A stretch of 64,000 nucleotides of DNA from Anaerolineae bacterium (lineage in GTDB: Bacteria > Chloroflexota > Anaerolineae > JAAEKA01). Position numbers and translations under genes: made by a program. This document shows positions 3,550 through 59,627 of the stretch, piece after piece (the first letter of the stretch is position 1; every line of letters starts with the position of its first letter). The DNA is taken from contig JBAQCH010000385.1 in NCBI GenBank assembly GCA_049294015.1, positions 1,111 through 65,110 of the forward strand. Direction: 5' to 3'. The notes below the pieces were generated by a model that was given only the letters and a program-made list of their open reading frames with translations, ran no database searches and was not told the DNA's origin.

Positions 3550-3969
3550 ATGGATACGATTGTGCTGGAACCAAACCTGCGCGCCTGGCTGGAACAGGAT
3601 GCAGAACAAGACACTCGCAGCATCAACAATCTGATTAACGAAGCGGTCGCCCAGTATCTGCGCGAGCGACAGCAAGCCAAGCTCGACCGGGAGATCGTCG
3701 CATACGAAGCGATGCACTCCCAGTTGGCGCTCGATCACGCAGGTGAGTGGGTGGCTATCCATCAGCAGGAGCTAGTCGATCACGACCGTGATCGCGTAGC
3801 CCTCTACCGACGTATTCGTAGTCGCTTTGGACGGACGTCGGTGCTGATCCGTCAAGTCATGGACAATCCGATGGAGGAGGTGTGGTTGCGTACGCCTTCC
3901 ACCGGGAGAAACGTGCTGAATAGGTTGGTCATGGTCCTGGACGGCCCCAAACAGACCTTGCAGATATGA
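3550..3969 (+). CDS. small RHH(CopG-like)/DUF5678-like protein, translationally coupled to cydD
   Basis: 139 aa; N-terminal ribbon-helix-helix-like segment (RSINNLINEAVAQYLRER); stop overlaps cydD start (ATGA). Confidence 0.55.
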   Translation: MDTIVLEPNLRAWLEQDAEQDTRSINNLINEAVAQYLRERQQAKLDREIVAYEAMHSQLALDHAGEWVAIHQQELVDHDRDRVALYRRIRSRFGRTSVLIRQVMDNPMEEVWLRTPSTGRNVLNRLVMVLDGPKQTLQI

Positions 3970-5861
3970 CCGCTCTACCACGAATCGCAGGGAGGCGCGG
4001 CGCTGACGACTCGACGCATCAGCGAAAGCCGGGCTTGACCAGCCGGCTGCTTTCGGCCAGCCCAACGGCCCGCTGGCTGCTGTTCCTGGCCGTGACCGCC
4101 GGCTTCACAGCCGGCGCTTTGTTAGTAGCGCAGATCGTCCTGCTCAGCAGCGCGGTTCAGCGCGTCTTTATCCTCGATCAAACGCTGGGCGACGTGCTGC
4201 CGCTGCTGGGGGTGATGCTGGCGCTGCTGCTGCTGCGCGCGGGCCTGGTCTGGGCGCAGGAGGTGGCGGCCCAGGGCGCAGCCAGCCGCGTCAAGCAGGG
4301 GCTGCGCGGCCAACTGCTGGCGCGCATCTACGCGCTGGGGCCGGCCTATACCCGCAGCGAGCGCAGCGGCGAGCTGGTCAACACGGCTGTCGAGGGGGTG
4401 GAGGCCCTGGACCCCTACGTCACCCAGTTCCTGCCCGCCCGTGCGCTGGCCGTTCTGCTGCCGCTGCTGGTGCTGCTGGCCGTCTTCCTGCTGGACCGCT
4501 GGACGACGCTGGTGCTGCTCTTCGCCGGGCCGATGCTGCTCCTGCTGCTGGCCGTGATCGGCGGCCGGGCTAAGGCGCTGACCGAGCGCCGTTTCCTGGA
4601 GTTGAGCTGGCTGAGCGCCTTCTTCCTGGACGTGCTGCAAGGCATTGCTACGCTCAAGATGTTCGGACGCAGCCGCGAACAAGCCGCTACCATCGAACGC
4701 ATCAGCCAGCACTACGGCAAGACCACCATGGAGGTGCTGGCAACCGCTTTCCAGACCTCGCTGATGATGGAGTGGGCGGCCACCGCAGCCACAGCCATGG
4801 TGGCGCTGGAGGTTAGTCTGCGCCTGATCAACGGCGCGATCTCCTTCGACCGGGCGCTGGCCGTGCTGCTGCTGACGCCGGAGTTCTTCCTGCCTTTGCG
4901 CCAGATGGCGGTCAAATACCACGTCGGCACGGCCGGCCAGGCCGCGGCGCAGCGGGTGGCTGCGGTGTTGGATGAGGGGAGGGGAACTGGGGCAACTGGA
5001 GAAACCGGAGGAACTCGCGACGCTCAGACCGGTCTCCTGACCGAGCCCGCCGCGCGGTCATCCGCTGGGGCCGGTCTCCTGACCGAGCCCGCCGCGCGTT
5101 TTGACATAGGCTTCGACGACGTCTGGTTTGCCTATCCGCCGCGGGCGCAGGACAGCGGCCAGCTTGGAGAAAAGTCGGCCACTGTCCTGCGCGGTCTCAC
5201 CTTTGTCATTCCGCATGGCCAGACCACAGCGTTGGTGGGGGCAACCGGCGCAGGCAAGTCGACAGTCGCGAATCTGCTGTTGCGCTTCATCGACCCCGAC
5301 GCAGGCCGCATCACCGTGGGCGGCGTCAGCTTGGACAGCATCGGCCGCGCGGCGTGGCGGCGGCGGATAGCTATCGTGCCGCAGGCGCCGCACATCTTCC
5401 ACGGCACGGCGCTGGACAACATCCGCCTGGCCCGGCCCGAGGCCAGCATGGAGCAGGTGATCGCCGCGGCCCAGGCCGCCCACGCCCACGGCTTCATCCA
5501 GGCCCTGCCGCAGGGCTACGACACCCCGCTGGGCGAGGGCGGCGCACGGCTTAGCGGCGGCCAGCGCCAGCGCCTGGCCCTGGCGCGCGCCTTCCTCAAG
5601 GACGCCCCGCTGCTGCTACTGGATGAAGCCACCGCCAACCTGGACGCCGAGAGCGACGCCTTGATCCGCGCAGCGCTGGCTCGCCTCGCCGCCGGTCGCA
5701 CCGTCCTGCTCATCGCCCATCGTCTGGAGCTGGCCGCAGCCGCCGATCAAATCGTCGTCCTGGACGCCGGCCGCGCCGCCGAGGTCGGCAACCACGCCAC
5801 GCTCCTGGCCCAAAACGGCCTCTACACCCAACTGGTCAACAGCTACATGAACGATGAATGA
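3966..5861 (+). CDS. cydD: thiol reductant ABC exporter, CydD subunit (TMD-NBD)
   Basis: 6-TM ABC exporter domain plus NBD (Walker A GATGAGKST, LSGGQRQR signature, Walker B LLLLDEAT); directly downstream of cydAB. Confidence 0.85.
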   Translation: MTALPRIAGRRGADDSTHQRKPGLTSRLLSASPTARWLLFLAVTAGFTAGALLVAQIVLLSSAVQRVFILDQTLGDVLPLLGVMLALLLLRAGLVWAQEVAAQGAASRVKQGLRGQLLARIYALGPAYTRSERSGELVNTAVEGVEALDPYVTQFLPARALAVLLPLLVLLAVFLLDRWTTLVLLFAGPMLLLLLAVIGGRAKALTERRFLELSWLSAFFLDVLQGIATLKMFGRSREQAATIERISQHYGKTTMEVLATAFQTSLMMEWAATAATAMVALEVSLRLINGAISFDRALAVLLLTPEFFLPLRQMAVKYHVGTAGQAAAQRVAAVLDEGRGTGATGETGGTRDAQTGLLTEPAARSSAGAGLLTEPAARFDIGFDDVWFAYPPRAQDSGQLGEKSATVLRGLTFVIPHGQTTALVGATGAGKSTVANLLLRFIDPDAGRITVGGVSLDSIGRAAWRRRIAIVPQAPHIFHGTALDNIRLARPEASMEQVIAAAQAAHAHGFIQALPQGYDTPLGEGGARLSGGQRQRLALARAFLKDAPLLLLDEATANLDAESDALIRAALARLAAGRTVLLIAHRLELAAAADQIVVLDAGRAAEVGNHATLLAQNGLYTQLVNSYMNDE

Positions 5862-5932
5862 GGAACGATGAACGATGAACCGAAGAGTCATCGTCCCTCA
5901 TTCATCATTCATCATTCATCAATCATCATTCC

Positions 5933-7813
5933 ATGATACGCCTCCTCAAGCTCATCGCTCCCTTCCGCTGGTGGATCGTCGCCGGCGTGCTGTTGAGCTT
6001 CGCCGTCACCGGGGCCAGCGTCGGGCTGATGGCCGTGTCGGCCTACCTGATCTCCAAGGCGGCGTTGGCGCGCGACATGACCGACCTGGCCGTCTGGATC
6101 ACCGGCGTGCGCTTCTTCGCCGTCTCCCGGGCCGCGCTGCGTTACGCTGAGCGCTACGTCACCCACCTGGCCACCTTCCGCATCCTGACCTCGCTGCGCG
6201 TCTGGTTTTATAGCGCTGTCGAGCCGCTGGCGCCGGCCCGGCTGGCGTCATACCGCAGCGGCGACCTGTTGACCCGCATCGTAGCCGACATCGAGACGCT
6301 GGAGAACTTCTACCTGCGGGTGGTGATCCCGCCCTTGGCCGCCGCGCTGGTCACGCTGCTGGCCTGTCTGCTGCTGGGCAGCTTCGACGTCTGGCTGGGC
6401 ATCGCCTTGCTAAGTTTCTTGCTGCTCACCGGCGTCGCCCTGCCGCTGGCCAGCCGCTGGCTCAGCCGCCAGCCGGCGGCCGAGGCCATCGCCCTGCGCG
6501 CCGAGCTGAACGCCACGCTGGTGGACGACATTCAGGGCATCGCCGATCTGCTGGCCTGTGGCCAGGAAGAGGTGTACCAGGCCCGCACGCTGCGACTCAG
6601 CCAGCAACTCCACCAGGCTCAGCAGCGGCTGGCCCAGGTGCGCGGCCTGGGCAACGGTCTGGCCGCGCTCTGCGCCAGCCTGGCCGCGCTGACCGTGCTG
6701 TTCCTGGCCATCCCGCTGGTGACCGCCGGCCAGATCGACGGCGTCTTCCTGGCCCTGCTGCCGCTGGCCGCCATCGCCGCGTTCGAGGCCGTCCAGCCGC
6801 TGGCCCACGCCTGGCAGACGCTGGAATCCAGCCAGGCGGCCGCCCGACGTATCTTCGAGCTGGTCGACGCGCCAGGACTGTCAGGTCGGCGAATCGACGG
6901 CGGGACGAGCATGGGCGCGACGGGGCAGCCCCACACGTCAGCCGCCGACCTGACAGTCCTTGATGTAGTCGACGGCGGGACGAGCATGGGCGCGACGGTG
7001 CAGCCCCCCACGTCAGCCGCCGACCTGACAGTCCTTGATGTAGTCGACGCGCCAGGACTGTCAGGTCGGCGAGTCGACGGCGGGATGAGCATGGGCGCGA
7101 CGGGGCAGCCCCACACGTCAGCCGCCGACCTGACAGTCCTTGACAGCGGCGGCCTCTCTATCGAAATACGGGACCTGCGCTTCCGCTATGCTGCCGACGA
7201 GCCGCTGGTGTTGGACGGCGTCAGCTTCAGCGTGCCAGCCGGCGGCCGCGCGGCCATCGTCGGCCCCAACGGCTCCGGCAAGTCCTCGCTGGTCAACCTG
7301 TTGCTGCGCTTCTGGGACTACGAGGGGGGAACGATCCGCGTCGGGGGACGTGACTTGCGGGAGATGTCCGCCGACGAGGCGCGCGGCCTGCTGGCCGTCG
7401 TGCCGCAGCACACCCATCTGTTCAACGCCACGATTCGCGACAACCTCCACCTGGCCAACCCCGATGCCAGCGACGACGAGCTGATCGCCGCCTGCCAGCA
7501 AGCCCAGCTTCACGACTTCATCCAGAGCCTGCCGCAGGGCTACGACACGCTGGTGGGGGAGAACGGGCTGCTGCTCAGCGGCGGCGAGCGGCAGCGGCTG
7601 GCCATCGCCCGCGCCGTCCTGAAGGACGCGCCGATCCTGATCCTGGACGAGGCCACGTCGCAACTGGATGCCCTGACCGAGCAGCGCCTCTTGCAGTCGC
7701 TGGCCGCTTTCATGGGCCGCCGCACCACGCTCCTGATCTCGCACCGCCGGGCCGGGCTGGCGCAGTTCGAGCGCATCGAGCTGGAGGCCAGCAGCGCCGG
7801 GAATTACACCTAA
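5933..7813 (+). CDS. cydC: thiol reductant ABC exporter, CydC subunit (TMD-NBD) with repeat insertion in linker
   Basis: ABC exporter TMD plus NBD (GPNGSGKSS, LSGGERQR, ILILDEAT); contains three tandem ~105-bp palindromic in-frame repeats at 6864-7143. Confidence 0.85.
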   Translation: MIRLLKLIAPFRWWIVAGVLLSFAVTGASVGLMAVSAYLISKAALARDMTDLAVWITGVRFFAVSRAALRYAERYVTHLATFRILTSLRVWFYSAVEPLAPARLASYRSGDLLTRIVADIETLENFYLRVVIPPLAAALVTLLACLLLGSFDVWLGIALLSFLLLTGVALPLASRWLSRQPAAEAIALRAELNATLVDDIQGIADLLACGQEEVYQARTLRLSQQLHQAQQRLAQVRGLGNGLAALCASLAALTVLFLAIPLVTAGQIDGVFLALLPLAAIAAFEAVQPLAHAWQTLESSQAAARRIFELVDAPGLSGRRIDGGTSMGATGQPHTSAADLTVLDVVDGGTSMGATVQPPTSAADLTVLDVVDAPGLSGRRVDGGMSMGATGQPHTSAADLTVLDSGGLSIEIRDLRFRYAADEPLVLDGVSFSVPAGGRAAIVGPNGSGKSSLVNLLLRFWDYEGGTIRVGGRDLREMSADEARGLLAVVPQHTHLFNATIRDNLHLANPDASDDELIAACQQAQLHDFIQSLPQGYDTLVGENGLLLSGGERQRLAIARAVLKDAPILILDEATSQLDALTEQRLLQSLAAFMGRRTTLLISHRRAGLAQFERIELEASSAGNYT

Positions 7814-10620: not shown

Positions 10621-10799
10621 ACAGAACAGGACTTACGCCAAACGCTGGTCGAGTAGGCCCGGCGGGTTTCGATACGCTGGATTTGAGCCTGCAAGATACG
10701 TGGTTGCAGCCGCCACTCAACCCACCGGCCGTATCGAGACCCGTTTTGCGTAAGTCCTGAGAGTTTTCGGACCTTTCATCGAAGGAGGCTTGCAACACA

Positions 10800-13505: not shown

Positions 13506-16106
13506 ATGCCCCACGACTATTCGACACTGATTACAACCAAGCTCCACCGTCCCCAGGTGGCCGGTGTACACGTCGAACGGACGCGCCTGCTCCAGCAGAT
13601 GCAGCGCGGCCTCAGCCAGCCGCTGACCCTGGTCTGCGCCGGAGCCGGTTTCGGCAAGACGACGTTGGTTAGTTGCTGGCTGGCGCAGAACGATGAACGC
13701 GCAGCGCTGAACGATGAAGCGGGCGCGGCGGAGACCTCTGCCTTTCATCGTTCATCGTTCAACCCTCATCATTTCCCCTCCGCCTGGCTAACGCTGGACG
13801 CACAGGATAGCGACCTGGGGCGATTTGCGGTCTATGTCGTTGCCGCGCTGCGCACGATGTTCCCCGACGCGTGCAGCGCAACCCTGGAGTTGGTGCATAC
13901 ACGAGCGGAGCCTCCCCTGGAGTTGCTGGCTGCCACCCTGATCAATGAGATCGCCCAACTCCCCAAGCATTTCGTCCTGGTTCTGGATGCCTTCGGCTCC
14001 CTTTCTGGCGAGGCTGTCCCTGATCTGCTGAACCGGTTGTTGCAGCACTGGCCGCCCACCATGCATCTGGTGCTGATCTCGCGCTTCAGCCCGAGCTTGT
14101 CGCTCGCCCGGCTGCGGGCCAACGGCGAGATCACCGAAATCCGTAGCCGCGACTTGCGTTTCACGGCCGAGGAGACGGCGGCCTATCTGGACCTGGCGCT
14201 GCCCACCCCGCTCAGCCAGCCGGCCCAAACCACGCTCGAGCAACGGGCCGAGGGATGGGTCGCCGGCCTGCAGCTAGCCGTTCTAGCTCTGCGCACGATG
14301 AGCGAGGCCGACATCGACGCAGCGATTGGCGCAGTGGTCGGGGTCGACGCAGTACAATATTTGGTAGACGAGGTTCTCGCGCATCAGCCGCCGGCGATTG
14401 AGGATTTTTTGCTCAGAACGTCAATCCTGGATCGCTTCTGTGCATCCTTGTGTGAGGCGGTCGCAGGCGGCGATGATGCCGGATGGACGGCGCAGGAAAG
14501 CCTGGCTTGGGTCGAACAGGCCAACCTGTTCGTCATATCGATGGACTATCAGCATGAGTGGTTTCGTTATCACAACTTGTTCCGGGAGACGCTGCGCCAG
14601 AGGCTGAACCACCGCTGGGGCCCGGACGAAGTGACCCGCTTGCACCGCGCGGCAGCCAAGTGGTTTGCGGAAAAAGGGTTGATCGATGAGGCGTTGCGCC
14701 ACGCCCTGGCGGCCGACGATCTGGAGCAGGCCGCCACCTTGATGGAGCATGCCCTGTGCGACGTGCTCAACCATGAGGACTGGCCCGCGCTGGCCCGCTG
14801 GCTGCGCCTGCTGCCCGAGGAGTCTGTCGAACGCCACCCCGGCATCCTGATGATCAAAGTGTGGTCGCTGCATTGGTCCTGGCAGCTTGACGCCATACCT
14901 CCGCTGCTCGACCAGATCGATAGGCTGATCGACGAGATTGGCCCCGGGGGCGACCTGCCAGCGCTGCGCGGGCAGATCGCTTTGCACCGTGCGCAGATCG
15001 CGTATATGCACAACCAGCCCGCCCGCGCCCTGGCCCACTGCCAGGAAGCATTGGCGCACCTGCCCAAAACGTGGCTGCACGGCCGCGGCAGCGCCATGTT
15101 GTTCACCGGCATGAGCCTGCAAGCCTTGGGCCGGGGCGACGAAGCCGAGCGCCTGTTGCGCAGCCAGTATGAGAGTCTTGGCGACTTGACAAGCAACTAT
15201 GCCATCCGGCTGCTGTTTGGCCTGACGGCCGTTTATTTTCAGTCGGGCCAGTTCGAGCTGGCCCGGCAGGCAGCCCAGGGAATGCTCCATCAGGCCGTGC
15301 GCAGCCGCTTGCCGATCCTCGAAGGTTGGGCTACGCTCTATCTCGCCAGGGTCTGGTATCACTGGAATGACTTGGATCAGGCCAGCCAAAGCTTCGAGAA
15401 GCTGGTCGACAAGCGTTATGTCATCCACAGCCAAACGGCGCGCAACAGTTTCGTAGGCCTGGCGCAGACACTGCAGGCGCGCGGCCAAAGCGTCGAGGCA
15501 TGGGAAGTGTTAGGGCTGCTCAGCCGCTTCGACCTGGATCTTGTCGGGCAGGAAACCGGCGACACGCGTGCTTTGCGCGCCTGGTTAGCGTTGGCGCAGG
15601 GCGATCGGGAACTCGCCTTGCGCTGGGCAGACTCGTTTTCTGCCCCGGCGTCGGAGCGCCCTTTTATCTGGGTGCAACAGCCGCACCTCATCAAGGCGTG
15701 TATCATGCTGGCCAGGGGCGGGAAGTCCGACATTCAGTCGGCCCTTGAGATCGCCGACGCCATCTACGCGATTGCCGAACGAGCGGCCAGCACGGACTTC
15801 ATGATAGCAGCCCTGGCTGTGCGTGCGCTGGCGCTCGATGCCGCGCAGCAAGCTGATGCTGCTCAGGCGGCGCGCGGTTGCGCTGGCCCAGCCCGGCGGC
15901 TTAATCCGGCTATTCGTCGACCTGGGGCCGCACATGCAGACGTTGCTGCGCCAACTGGCCAGGGACGAAGCGTCCAACGAGCTCGTCCGGCGCATTCTGG
16001 CCGCATTCTCAGACGCGCACGATGGAGCGGCCGGGGAGACAGCCGCGCGGCCTGCGCCGCGATCGTTCAAGGTGGCCGGCCTGGTGGAGCCGCTGACCAT
16101 GCGTGA
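13506..16106 (+). CDS. MalT-like LuxR-family regulator (AAA ATPase + TPR), apparently frameshifted before the HTH domain
   Basis: TKLHRPQ start motif; Walker A GAGFGKTT; paralog of the 42339 gene; reading frame diverges from the paralog around 15860-15880. Confidence 0.65.
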   Translation: MPHDYSTLITTKLHRPQVAGVHVERTRLLQQMQRGLSQPLTLVCAGAGFGKTTLVSCWLAQNDERAALNDEAGAAETSAFHRSSFNPHHFPSAWLTLDAQDSDLGRFAVYVVAALRTMFPDACSATLELVHTRAEPPLELLAATLINEIAQLPKHFVLVLDAFGSLSGEAVPDLLNRLLQHWPPTMHLVLISRFSPSLSLARLRANGEITEIRSRDLRFTAEETAAYLDLALPTPLSQPAQTTLEQRAEGWVAGLQLAVLALRTMSEADIDAAIGAVVGVDAVQYLVDEVLAHQPPAIEDFLLRTSILDRFCASLCEAVAGGDDAGWTAQESLAWVEQANLFVISMDYQHEWFRYHNLFRETLRQRLNHRWGPDEVTRLHRAAAKWFAEKGLIDEALRHALAADDLEQAATLMEHALCDVLNHEDWPALARWLRLLPEESVERHPGILMIKVWSLHWSWQLDAIPPLLDQIDRLIDEIGPGGDLPALRGQIALHRAQIAYMHNQPARALAHCQEALAHLPKTWLHGRGSAMLFTGMSLQALGRGDEAERLLRSQYESLGDLTSNYAIRLLFGLTAVYFQSGQFELARQAAQGMLHQAVRSRLPILEGWATLYLARVWYHWNDLDQASQSFEKLVDKRYVIHSQTARNSFVGLAQTLQARGQSVEAWEVLGLLSRFDLDLVGQETGDTRALRAWLALAQGDRELALRWADSFSAPASERPFIWVQQPHLIKACIMLARGGKSDIQSALEIADAIYAIAERAASTDFMIAALAVRALALDAAQQADAAQAARGCAGPARRLNPAIRRPGAAHADVAAPTGQGRSVQRARPAHSGRILRRARWSGRGDSRAACAAIVQGGRPGGAADHA

Positions 16107-20475: not shown

Positions 20476-20480
20476 CGCCA

Positions 20481-20555
20481 GGTAGATTGGTAGATTGGTA
20501 AACCGGTAGATTGGTCAGCTTTTTCGCGAGACTCAACCAATCTACCAATCTACCA
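20481..20555 (+). repeat. long hairpin built from GGTAGATTGGT repeats downstream of argF
   Basis: ggtagattggtagattggt ... accaatctaccaatctacc, with a third direct copy in the loop. Confidence 0.6.
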
Positions 20556-20580
20556 GCCGTGTTGAACTGATCAAAAAGGA

Positions 20581-39508: not shown

Positions 39509-40057
39509 ATGTTACGCAGAGATGATCGACAGGAGAGGCGCGAGGAGCGCCGCGAAGGTGGCAGCGGTAAGACCCACTACCAAATGCGTCAAAAGATGTT
39601 CGCTATCGGCGACGACTTCTGGATCGAGAACGACCGCGGCGAGCGAGTCTACAAGGTCGATGGCAAGGCGCTGCGCATCCGCAGCACGCTGGTGCTGGAG
39701 GACCGCAGCGGCCGCGAGGTAGCCAGGATCCAGGAGCGCATGCTGCGCATCAAGGATAGCATGGAGATCGAAGACGCCAACGGCCAGCGGGTAGGCATGG
39801 TCAAGAAGGCTCTGATCACGCCGATTCGCGATCGCTGGGTGGTCAAGATCAAGGACGGCCCCGATCTGGACGTGCAGGGCAACATCCTGGACCACGAGTA
39901 CACCATCGGCGAGGGCCGCGACAAAGTGGCCGAGGTGTCCAAGAAGTGGTTCCGTATTCGTGACAGCTACGGCATCGAGATCGAGCCGGGCCAGGACGAC
40001 GCCGTGATCTTGATGGTCGCCGTCGCCATCGACGAGATGGCCCATCCTTCCCGTTAG
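39509..40057 (+). CDS. LURP-one-related (DUF567, tubby C-terminal-like) protein
   Basis: MFAIGDDFWIENDRGERVYKVDGKALRIRSTLVLEDRSGREVARIQERMLRI matches the LOR-family pattern. Confidence 0.6.
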   Translation: MLRRDDRQERREERREGGSGKTHYQMRQKMFAIGDDFWIENDRGERVYKVDGKALRIRSTLVLEDRSGREVARIQERMLRIKDSMEIEDANGQRVGMVKKALITPIRDRWVVKIKDGPDLDVQGNILDHEYTIGEGRDKVAEVSKKWFRIRDSYGIEIEPGQDDAVILMVAVAIDEMAHPSR

Positions 40058-40069
40058 GAGAGAAGCACT

Positions 40070-40498
40070 ATGCTCAAGTTTGGACCTGTGGATGTAGTGG
40101 TGCTGGCGGCTGGCGAGCCGCGCTTCAACGGCAGCATCTTTGCTGCGCTGGAGCGCCAGGCAGCGGCCGGCACGATCCGCGTGCTGGACGCCATGCTGCT
40201 GATGAAGGACGACGCAGGCGAGGCCTGGCGCATCGATCTGGAAGACCTGACCGATGAAGAGAAGGCCGCCTTAGGCTTCATCGAGACGGAGACGCGTGGT
40301 CTGTTCGACTCCGACGACGCCGGCGTGCTGTTCGAGGGCATGGTGCCCGGCTCGGCCGTGGTGGCCCTGGCCATTGAACACACCTGGGCCGTCGAGTTGG
40401 TCAACGCAGTCTATGACGCTGGCGTGGAGCTGGCCTTCCAGTTCCGCGTGCCGGCGGTCGTCGTCGACGAGGCCTACGCCTCGCTGGAAGCTAATTGA
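40070..40498 (+). CDS. tandem DUF1269-N-like soluble domain protein
   Basis: two repeats resembling the N-terminal soluble domain of the 38940 product; AGGAGAGAAG RBS. Confidence 0.5.
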   Translation: MLKFGPVDVVVLAAGEPRFNGSIFAALERQAAAGTIRVLDAMLLMKDDAGEAWRIDLEDLTDEEKAALGFIETETRGLFDSDDAGVLFEGMVPGSAVVALAIEHTWAVELVNAVYDAGVELAFQFRVPAVVVDEAYASLEAN

Positions 40499-40509
40499 CG
40501 GAGGTTATC

Positions 40510-40818
40510 ATGCCAGGACTAGTACGAGGAATGGCCCGCACCGCCGCTGTGGTGGGCACCGCCACCGCCACCCGCAACGCCGTCAATCGCCGGCAGGCTG
40601 ACAAGAACATGGCGGCCTACTCGCAAGCCGCGGCCAACAACGCTCCGCAGCAGCAGGTCGTCTACGCTGCGCCGCCGCAGGAGTACATTCCTGCGCAGGC
40701 GCCAGCCATGCAGGAGGATGTCATCACCCAGCTTGAGCGCCTGGGCGCGCTCAAGGCGCAGGGGTTGCTGACCGAAGAGGAATTCGCCGCACAGAAGGCT
40801 AAGCTGCTGGGGCTTTGA
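40510..40818 (+). CDS. SHOCT-domain protein
   Basis: C-terminal DVITQLERLGALKAQGLLTEEEFAAQKAKLLGL; MPGLVRGMARTAAVVGTATA N-terminus; GGAGG RBS. Confidence 0.6.
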   Translation: MPGLVRGMARTAAVVGTATATRNAVNRRQADKNMAAYSQAAANNAPQQQVVYAAPPQEYIPAQAPAMQEDVITQLERLGALKAQGLLTEEEFAAQKAKLLGL

Positions 40819-40830
40819 TCGAACTGAACT

Positions 40831-40864
40831 GCCCTTTGGGCTGTGACGCCGCAGCCCAAAGGGC
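40831..40864 (+). terminator. rho-independent terminator
   Basis: gccctttgggctg / cagcccaaagggc stem followed by ttctttcattt. Confidence 0.55.
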
Positions 40865-40877
40865 TTCTTTCATTTGG

Positions 40878-41007
40878 GTGTGTTCAAAGTAGGTTGAGTC
40901 CCCCTCCGGCTCGTAGGACGATTTTCCAAATCGTCCGTTCTTGTGGCCGTGAGGCGGACGATTTGGAAAATCGTCCTACGCAGGCTCAACCCATTTTGAA
41001 CACACCC
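40878..41007. mobile_element. MITE-like nested inverted-repeat element flanked by 11-bp direct repeat CTTTCATTTGG
   Basis: terminal IRs gtgtgttcaaagtaggttgag / ctcaacccattttgaacacac; two internal inverted hairpin units (ggacgattttccaaatcgtcc / ggacgatttggaaaatcgtcc); flanking direct repeats at 40867-77 and 41008-18. Confidence 0.45.
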
Positions 41008-41124
41008 CTTTCATTTGGCGATGTCGCACGGAAAGGAGGCGCAACGGGTAAGAACACCCTGGTCCACGTCAATTGTTTGTATCCTCGCCGCGTCCCCGGC
41101 TAATTCTTGCAAGGAGCGACCATC

Positions 41125-41772
41125 ATGAATCCTGATTCTTTCTTCGCGATGGCCTGCGCCAGCCTGATCGCCTTCATGTTCGGCCTGGTGCTCTGTTTCG
41201 GCGGCTATCGCTTCTTTCTCATCCTGCTGCCCATCTGGGGCTTCTTTTTTGGCCTGGTCTTCGGGGCCCAGTCGATGCAGATGCTGTTCGGCGCGGGGTT
41301 CCTTGCCACCGTGACCAGTTGGGTGGCTGGCTTCGTGGTCGGCGCGATCTTCGCCGTGCTGTCCTATTTCTTCTACTTCTTCGCCGTGGTGTTGATCGGC
41401 GCAGCGCTGGGCTATACAGCCGCCACCGGGCTTCTGCTGGCCATTGGCATGGATATGGGCTTCCTGGTCTGGATCGTCGGCGTCGTAGCTGCCGTCGCGA
41501 TGGCCTTCGTCACCATCCGCTTCAACCTGCAGAAGTGGGTCATCATCATCGCCACCAGCCTGCTGGGCGCGGGCGTGATCTTCGGCGCCTTCGTGATCCT
41601 CTTCGCCCCGCACGCTGCGTTGATGGAGAACCCCATCAAGGTGGCCTTGCAGCAGTCGCCGCTGCTCCTGATCACGGCGCTGATCGTCGCCATCCTCGGC
41701 ATCGTCGTCCAGGTGCGCGCTAACCGCGCCTACACCCTCGAGACCTACAACCGTTGGGCTGAGCCGGTCTGA
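41125..41772 (+). CDS. DUF4203 (TM7S3/TMEM198-like) membrane protein
   Basis: 215 aa, 7 predicted TM; AAGGAG RBS. Confidence 0.55.
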   Translation: MNPDSFFAMACASLIAFMFGLVLCFGGYRFFLILLPIWGFFFGLVFGAQSMQMLFGAGFLATVTSWVAGFVVGAIFAVLSYFFYFFAVVLIGAALGYTAATGLLLAIGMDMGFLVWIVGVVAAVAMAFVTIRFNLQKWVIIIATSLLGAGVIFGAFVILFAPHAALMENPIKVALQQSPLLLITALIVAILGIVVQVRANRAYTLETYNRWAEPV

Positions 41773-41774
41773 GA

Positions 41775-41902
41775 GTGTCAGGTGTCAAGTGTCATAAGTG
41801 TCAGGTGTAGGGTGTCATGTGTCAAGTACCAAGTGTCAGGTGTCATGTGGCATGTTGAGCGTGCTGCGGGGCACCTGACACCCGACACCCGACACCTGAC
41901 AC
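41775..41902. repeat. GTGTCAR heptamer tandem-repeat tract with downstream inverted copy
   Basis: about 10 tandem gtgtca(g/a) units at 41775-41848; complementary cacctgacacccgacacccgacacctgacacc at 41871-41902. Confidence 0.6.
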
Positions 41903-41923
41903 CTTCCCACAAGGAGATTCCCC

Positions 41924-42217
41924 ATGTGCTGTCTATTCACTGTCCTGGTCTTTCTCGGCCCGCGCGCCGGCATTCTCGTCTGGTGGCTGCTTCAGCCGGC
42001 GCGTTGGCAGTTGGCTTTTGCCAACATGAGTTTCCTCATACCGCTCCTGGGCTTCGTCTTCGTGCCCTGGACGACCATCATGTACGTGCTGGTCTTTGCC
42101 GGCGGCGTCACCGGCTTCGATTGGGTGTGGCTGGGCCTCGGCCTGCTGGCTGACATCGCCTGGTGGTCGGGCGCGGCCGCGCGCCGGCGCGTTCCGGGCT
42201 ACACCGGCCAGTATTAG
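41924..42217 (+). CDS. small 3-TM membrane protein, divergent paralog of 16826/45803 family
   Basis: 97 aa; same TM topology and conserved W/P positions; AAGGAG RBS. Confidence 0.55.
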   Translation: MCCLFTVLVFLGPRAGILVWWLLQPARWQLAFANMSFLIPLLGFVFVPWTTIMYVLVFAGGVTGFDWVWLGLGLLADIAWWSGAAARRRVPGYTGQY

Positions 42218-59454: not shown

Positions 59455-59627
59455 CGGCACAGCCGTTGTTGCGCCGGTGTGTGAAACGTGGGTTAAGTAG
59501 GCCGCCGTACACCTGCACTTGCGCCGGAGCGCGGCGCAGGTGCAAGCGTCGAAACCAGCGTTTCGCACACCGGCAGAGTTCAAGCAGCGTTTGGCACACC
59601 CGGCTAGGCGACGCGACAAACCACGCC

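Follow-up and report, generated by a model that had tools for sequence, protein, structure and literature searches.

A recently mobile 132-bp MITE in the terminator T-tract of a SHOCT-domain gene from Chloroflexota

The window, i.e., the whole stretch of 64 kb that was analysed, contains two plus-strand genes which flank the feature described here. The upstream gene (40510..40818) encodes a 102-aa SHOCT-domain protein, as judged from the translation and from Pfam PF09851 on an identical protein, and the downstream gene (41125..41772) encodes a 215-aa membrane protein of the TM7S3/TM198 family (translation; Pfam PF13886 on the orthologue in contig L001). The SHOCT gene is followed by an intrinsic-terminator-like hairpin on the same strand (40831..40864) with 13-nt perfect arms and the T-tract TTCTTTCATTT; the left flank folds with -32.6 kcal/mol. 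This T-tract is the target of an insertion: an element is situated directly 3' of the hairpin, within its T-tract. A sequence-only reading of the same DNA had placed it just downstream of a terminator. The terminator and its T-tract are intact upstream of the insertion, and the start codon of the membrane-protein gene lies 117 nt past the element.

The element extends from 40876 to 41007 (132 bp), and these boundaries can be read directly from the duplication, the empty allele and the family ends described below. It is bracketed by two identical copies of the 9-bp target-site duplication CTTTCATTT, the left at 40867..40875 and the right at 41008..41016 (direct-repeat and empty-site comparison), which correspond to the single copy CTTTTATTT of the empty alleles. 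The left terminal inverted repeat (TIR; 40876..40898, plus strand) reads GGGTGTGTTCAAAGTAGGTTGAG and matches the family consensus derived from 48 ends with a PWM score of 38.6. It is followed by a subterminal spacer, TCCCCCTCCGGCT (40899..40911, plus strand), which is conserved among the 132-bp copies, and by inner arm 1 (40912..40937, plus strand). This arm was delimited by inverted-repeat analysis and is a REP-like unit, related to the TIR-less units of an array in contig L026, composed of a GTAG tag and the palindrome GGACGATTT-TCC-AAATCGTCC (40916-40936). A 17-nt spacer, the loop (40938..40954, plus strand), in which element position 69 is T in the window copy but C in the other seven, separates it from inner arm 2 (40955..40980, minus strand), the same unit inverted (palindrome 40956-40976) and 100% complementary to arm 1. 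The right end is formed by the subterminal spacer CAGG (40981..40984, plus strand) and the right TIR (40985..41007, minus strand), whose minus strand, GGGTGTGTTCAAAATGGGTTGAG, is the family consensus itself and reaches the maximum possible PWM score of 42.4.

Accordingly arranged, the outer inverted repeat (40876-40898 / 40985-41007) measures 23 nt with 21/23 positions complementary, and the inner one (40912-40937 / 40955-40980) measures 26 nt, is 100% complementary across the 17-nt spacer and contains the palindrome GGACGATTT-N3-AAATCGTCC in each arm (40916-40936, 40956-40976). For both the outer and the inner motif, 0 matches are expected by chance according to dinucleotide shuffles of the window. 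The element is GC-rich and hairpin-forming over its whole length; the 152-nt stretch folds with -86.3 kcal/mol compared with -39.8 +/- 3.7 kcal/mol for shuffled sequences (z = -12.6), and the opposite strand folds about equally well (z = -11.0). No coding capacity was found on the element, and gene calls at the orthologous locus of L001 place no gene there. An 86-aa ORF at 40843-41103, present in a mechanically made ORF list, spans the terminator hairpin and was rejected as spurious.

The inverted repeats, the hairpin units and the direct repeat named in the sequence-only reading were all recovered at the positions it gave, whereas two of its measures had to be revised. The 11-bp direct repeat CTTTCATTTGG at 40867-40877 and 41008-41018 is present and does mark a target-site duplication, but the duplication proper comprises only the 9 bp CTTTCATTT: since all family members begin with GGG, the GG of the left 11-mer represents the first two bases of the TIR, and the GG of the right 11-mer is native flank, as it is present in the empty allele. 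Likewise, the length of 130 bp was corrected to 132 bp by the family ends and the empty allele.

Motif and PWM scans found a single copy within the 64-kb window. The PWM scan with the family TIRs returned these two ends and one weak relative, a decayed palindromic element at 59474-59605, which has termini related to the TIR (GCCGGTGTGTGAAACGTGGGTT ... AACCAGCGTTTCGCACACCGGC) and its own inner hairpin. It scores 14.4 in the PWM scan (at most 10.1 in shuffled sequences), is followed after some 20 nt by a third TIR-like piece and shows no visible duplication.

A look-up of the SHOCT protein in public assemblies yielded ten contigs of the same species with flanks 95-100% identical. Four of these, metagenome contigs (L003, L004, L005 and L008) from four different samples (ERZ28615878, ERZ28616168, SRR30877597 and ERR13252760), carry an empty allele, all reading GGGCTTCTTTTATTTGGCGATG, and are without exactly 141 bp, i.e., 132 bp of element plus 9 bp for one copy of the duplication. 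L005 and L008 read ...CAGCCCAAAGGGCTTCTTTTATTTGGCGATG..., which equals the window minus the element and one repeat copy, and the sequence across the empty-site junction is GGGCTTCTTTTATTTGGCG. L003 and L004 have the same empty sequence and match the window at 99.8% identity over 8.6 kb; for the strains without the element overall, the flanks are 98-99.8% identical to the window. The intergenic gap of L001 equals that of the window, and the gap of L005 and L008 is 141 bp shorter. The filled allele was found in eight independent assemblies (window, L001, L006, L007, L009, L010, L023 and L029). Because the empty alleles were assembled from four separate samples and have a distinguishing SNP in common, they do not represent deletions made in assembly. 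Filled and empty alleles are thus an insertion polymorphism inside a natural population, and the search for empty sites that had been suggested beforehand confirmed, in near-identical strains, the target-site duplication.

The fifth base of the duplication (40871, 41012) is C (TCA) in all filled and T (TTA) in all empty alleles. Two flanking SNP haplotypes, one represented by the window and L005 and the other by L001 and L008, each occur in filled and empty form. This pattern fits an insertion into the C-allele, followed by recombination within the population.

The second suggested check, a search for further copies with different flanks, also succeeded. At least seven further 132-bp copies were found at unrelated sites (L020, L038, L048, L054, L035/L028, L052 and L006), inserted in both orientations and differing from the window copy at 3-10 positions (92-98% identity). 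Five of the seven are flanked by their own perfect 9-bp duplication, L054 by one matching at 8/9 positions, and the L006 copy lies on a chimeric contig. The differences between the copies are scattered and not compensatory, and some break the stem. Two variants were a 206-bp composite (L050/L023) and a truncated copy (L056). A third, in L015 of Caldilineales DTUCFX11 (1943-2085), consists of a left TIR and three REP-like units with no right TIR; about 1.7 kb away, at 3660-3740, the same contig has a remnant of another subfamily with AGACTTCCGAAGTCT palindromes around a degenerate TIR.

One metagenome, Ga0209573, accounts for at least nine of the loci. Among these, only L029 is demonstrably orthologous to the window locus, and only by assumption do the remaining copies of this metagenome belong to the same organism as the window. 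Two contigs join the left flank of the window through the element to the flank of another locus (L006, 1961-2483, to L052; L023, 220-425, to L050), being either assembly chimeras or real recombinants between copies, and several contigs break inside the element. Such breaks and joins are expected of a dispersed repeat.

Scans for exact matches to the TIR pattern returned 6 loci in species-representative genomes, a collection scanned without the window's own genome, and 41 loci in metagenomes. All genome loci with real elements belong to Chloroflexota MAGs (Anaerolineae, Chloroflexia, Caldilineaceae and Caldilineales DTUCFX11). From 48 ends of 24 elements, the 23-bp TIR consensus GGGTGTGTTCAAAATGGGTTGAG was derived; one end per element was fixed by the search pattern, and the free end proved equally conserved. 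All elements with paired ends begin with GGGTGTGTTCAA and finish with TTGAACACACCC. Between these TIRs, in elements of 79-206 bp, at least 12 unrelated core types occur, all of which fold into hairpins. Perfect (9/9) duplications were present at 14 distinct sites, the window included, and always in the 9-bp register; 5 more sites match at 7-8 of 9 positions. TIR matches in proteobacterial or eukaryote-like contigs (L012/L040, L016, L022, L033/L041/L053, L037/L043, L042/L055 and L044) were discarded, as they look like chance. The scans of viral contigs gave 0 matches for the TIR pattern and, for the inner palindrome, two matches that were rejected as chance, one in a coding sequence and one a lone AT-rich palindrome.

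For 19 insertions, the empty sites were reconstructed, and the target consensus read directly from them is the symmetric WWWTSAWWW, with a tendency for C just 5' and G just 3' of it. The duplicated 9-mers have a mean GC content of 24% compared with 55% in the flanks. Five of the 19 sites (window, L013, L020, L032 and L045) lie in a T-tract straight after a strong hairpin. We read the use of terminator T-tracts as an outcome of the AT-rich preference in a genome of 64% GC and not as recognition of terminators.

The segment 40876-41007 shows the features by which bacterial MITEs are generally known: it is small (about 50-600 bp in such elements) and non-coding, has TIRs and a fixed-length duplication with an empty site, and occurs at several unrelated loci. 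Conserved TIRs with a 9-bp duplication of constant length directly beside them are the hallmark of a DDE transposase which makes staggered cuts. With a probability of roughly 93%, the segment is a 132-bp MITE, i.e., a non-coding, non-autonomous DNA transposon, presumably moved in trans by a DDE-type transposase. The earlier suggestion of a non-autonomous transposable element with a target-site duplication is thereby supported, both by the empty sites and by the copies with their own duplications. The enzyme must act in trans because the element has no coding capacity; as no partner IS was found, we infer the class of the enzyme and its action in trans. According to the proposed mechanism, a DDE-type transposase, supplied in trans, would bind the conserved 23-bp TIRs and cut the AT-rich WWWTSAWWW target, here the T-tract of the SHOCT gene terminator, with a stagger of 9 bp; repair of the resulting gaps would then produce the duplication CTTTCATTT. 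The core would be passenger DNA: two inverted copies of a REP-like palindrome with a GTAG tag, through which the whole element becomes a long hairpin.

A search of 383 kb of sequence for TIR pairs 500-4000 bp apart (at most 7/23 mismatches) gave no autonomous IS with these TIRs. Two pairs at this distance were rejected: one encloses housekeeping genes and its second 'TIR' lies in a decayed remnant of another subfamily, and the other represents two separate MITEs. The ORFs on the inward side of 12 solo TIRs belonged to ordinary genes or to eukaryotic sequence and in no case to a transposase, and a plasmid collection gave no match (blastn in distant mode, E ≤ 10). Judged from the TIR end and the duplication length, the IS1 family and the IS903/ISAba12 group of IS5 are candidate parents, and elements of the IS1595/IS1016 type are presumably a further candidate. 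The defined TIR offers a handle for finding the responsible transposase.

The origin of the core is suggested by its two inner units. The sequence GTAGGACGATTTTCCAAATCGTCC is present twice, inverted and with a 17-nt spacer, which fits the REP/REPIN plan of a 20-40-nt palindrome with a 5' GTAG arranged as an inverted doublet. The array of contig L026 (556-830) is located between two genes, has no MITE TIRs nearby and consists of seven REP-like units with a spacing of about 39-40 nt, six of them GTACAGCGATTTTCCAAATCGCTGC (one degenerate) and the last one inverted, GTAGCACGATTTTCCAAATCGTGC. The L026 units and the inner palindrome of the window share the core CGATTTTCCAAATCG, and the changes in the outer stem are compensatory. 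The core of the element thus looks like captured REP-type DNA, as far as can be told from these similarities. Across the 12 core types, GTAG was observed in 9 cases compared with 6.0 expected, which is not significant (P = 0.14). An enrichment of GTAG...CTAC pairing (P = 0.005) was dismissed as inflated, since the cores themselves are palindromic.

Given this core, the mobile unit could alternatively be the inner REPIN-like doublet (40912-40980), moved by a RAYT (REP-associated tyrosine transposase), and the outer repeats would be incidental. GTAG REPs have been reported in Chloroflexi (PMC3733652), both inner units are built like a REP, with GTAG placed 5' of a 21-nt palindrome, their inverted arrangement around the 17-nt spacer has the geometry of a REPIN, and related units form the seven-unit array without TIRs in L026. 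However, the unit that is polymorphic at this locus is the whole TIR-bounded 132 bp together with a 9-bp duplication, and the 12 core types have the TIRs in common, not the cores. No REP-like unit was found in the window outside the element, and GTAG is not significantly enriched across the cores. Furthermore, Y1/HUH transposases are not known to create such duplications. Mobilisation of the doublet by a RAYT in place of the whole element is therefore considered very unlikely.

The sequence-only reading had left room for a structured sRNA, and a gene for a small RNA, or an RNA acting in cis on the flanking genes, would indeed be compatible with the very stable fold of both strands (z = -12.6 and -11.0) and with the position between a terminator and the 5' region of the next gene. 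The results did not support this: a permissive Rfam scan of 40000-42000 matched no family and stayed far below the gathering scores (best score 38 bits vs 101.7, for a plant miRNA model, i.e., hairpin noise), neither strand of 40400-41400 has a promoter-like site, strains whose flanks are 98-99.8% identical lack the element, and it occurs in both orientations at unrelated loci. Structure-preserving evolution was rejected as well, the differences between copies being scattered, non-compensatory and in part disruptive to the stem. An RNA function is considered very unlikely, and equally so a role as two operators through which a dimeric DNA-binding protein would regulate the downstream membrane-protein gene. 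The latter could be read from the two near-perfect 21-bp palindromes, 40 bp apart from start to start and 150-210 bp upstream of the gene start, but the complementarity extends to the loops and flanks (26-nt perfect arms), which argues for an inverted duplication and not for two independent sites, the doublet travels with the TIRs to unrelated loci, and it is dispensable in that the empty alleles keep the same flanking genes.

For the MITE at this locus, some consequences for the neighbouring genes may be predicted. The insertion shifts anything upstream 141 bp farther from the start of the membrane-protein gene and brings in a further hairpin (about -85 kcal/mol), behind which the duplicated T-rich 9-mer is located. 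A transcript reading through the SHOCT terminator would meet a second strong hairpin and a duplicated T-rich tract, and expression at the locus may be affected in this way. A more far-reaching and, taken jointly, rather unlikely proposal is that the 23-bp TIR serves as a modular 'shell' into which unrelated hairpins, of at least 12 core types and including REP-like ones, have been taken up time and again, that the REPIN-like doublet can also be recognised by a RAYT, and that the preference for T-tracts makes the element a dispersible second terminator. If the doublet were recognised by a RAYT, the element would be a substrate for two transposition systems.

The element is a recently mobile MITE of a new family in a little-studied phylum and is of an ordinary kind; the general understanding of MITEs is unchanged by it. 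It shows that a MITE family has recently been active in Chloroflexota (Caldilineales and relatives). In the literature collection searched, the full texts gave nothing relevant for the TIR sequence, and no description of MITEs in Chloroflexi came up. The family accounts for breaks in contigs and for chimeric joins when metagenomes of these organisms are assembled, and the element can be used as a strain-level marker.

Several other repeats were noted in the window. At 41773-41900, between the stop codon of the TM198-family gene and the next ORF, a tandem array of about 12 heptamers (G/A)GTGTCA precedes 4-5 copies of the complementary heptamer CC(T/C)GACA, and together they form a long hairpin (-71.7 kcal/mol, z = -5.8). 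This array varies between strains, as L001 has a shorter one with different heptamers at the same place. Three further intergenic hairpins composed of tandem heptamer-like repeats and their complements are located at 5847-5912, 13689-13773 and 20476-20559 (GAACGAT.../...ATCATTC; GGTAGATT.../...CAATCTACC). The heptamer hairpins look like a recurring feature of this genome and bring to mind the short heptamers that are repeated in tandem in filamentous cyanobacteria. A segment of 133 bp with 33-nt inverted arms (76% complementary), beginning a few bases past a stop codon (10627-10759), may be another small palindromic repeat element. Finally, the 18-mer AGGACTGTCAGGTCGGCG occurs five times at 100% identity and in alternating orientation at 6874-7140, inside a long ORF (5933-7813).

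Among known systems, the IS6/IS26 family has the TIR consensus GGTTCTGTTGCAAA with invariant G1, G2 and G7 and a conserved G10, 8-bp duplications and cointegrate formation (PMC6807381). Ten of 14 terminal positions are identical in the element, including G1, G2 and G7, but position 10 is C in place of the conserved G10, and parentage was rejected, as all 14 perfect sites have a 9-bp and not an 8-bp duplication. Members of the IS1 family have ends of the type GGnnnTG and direct repeats of 8-9 bp (ISfinder summary, PMC10425158 Table 8). The element begins with GGGTGTG and has a 9-bp duplication, a match limited to end motif and duplication length; the GGnnnTG motif is also found in the IS6/IS26 family (PMC6807381), and no IS1-type transposase is linked to these TIRs.

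MITEAba12 of Acinetobacter, related to ISAba12 of the IS5 family, is 113 bp long with 78% AT and has 9-bp duplications in AT-rich targets (PMC6382973). It resembles the element described here as a small non-coding sequence with 9-bp duplications, AT-rich targets and insertion polymorphism between strains, and in that only the TIRs would be common with any candidate parent IS. The 9-bp duplication and AT-rich targets characteristic of the IS903/ISAba12 group (PMC6382973) are both found here. The ISAba12 TIR, GGCTTTGTTGCACAAA (PMC6382973), shares 9/16 positions with GGGTGTGTTCAAAATG (GG-T-TGTT..A.A); in comparison with the TIR type GGCTTTGTTG... of the IS903/ISAba12 group, however, the third base of the element is G and not C. 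MITEAba12 also differs in phylum and base composition and in its TIR of 16 bp compared with 23 bp; for the element, no co-resident parent IS was identified, and its TIR carries many unrelated cores.

REPs and REPINs are mobilised by RAYTs, and REPs of the GTAG type have been reported in Chloroflexi (PMC3733652). They resemble the core, in which two 21-nt palindromes with a GTAG tag stand inverted on either side of a short spacer, and a related palindrome makes up the REP/BIME-like array of L026, whereas the unit moved here is bounded by TIRs with a 9-bp duplication and free REP units are absent from the window. QMITE2 of Coxiella burnetii is a known MITE whose core likewise includes a GTAG REP (reviewed in PMC10969869). 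It has no sequence similarity to the element, is longer (core 113-145 bp), and its REP is a known target of IS1111 (PMC10969869). QMITE2 is flanked by direct repeats of 7-9 bp, its TIRs measure 23-29 bp, its transcript folds strongly, and it is located mostly in the 3' regions of genes; in these features, and in the GTAG REP-type palindrome inside the core, it is like the element described here.
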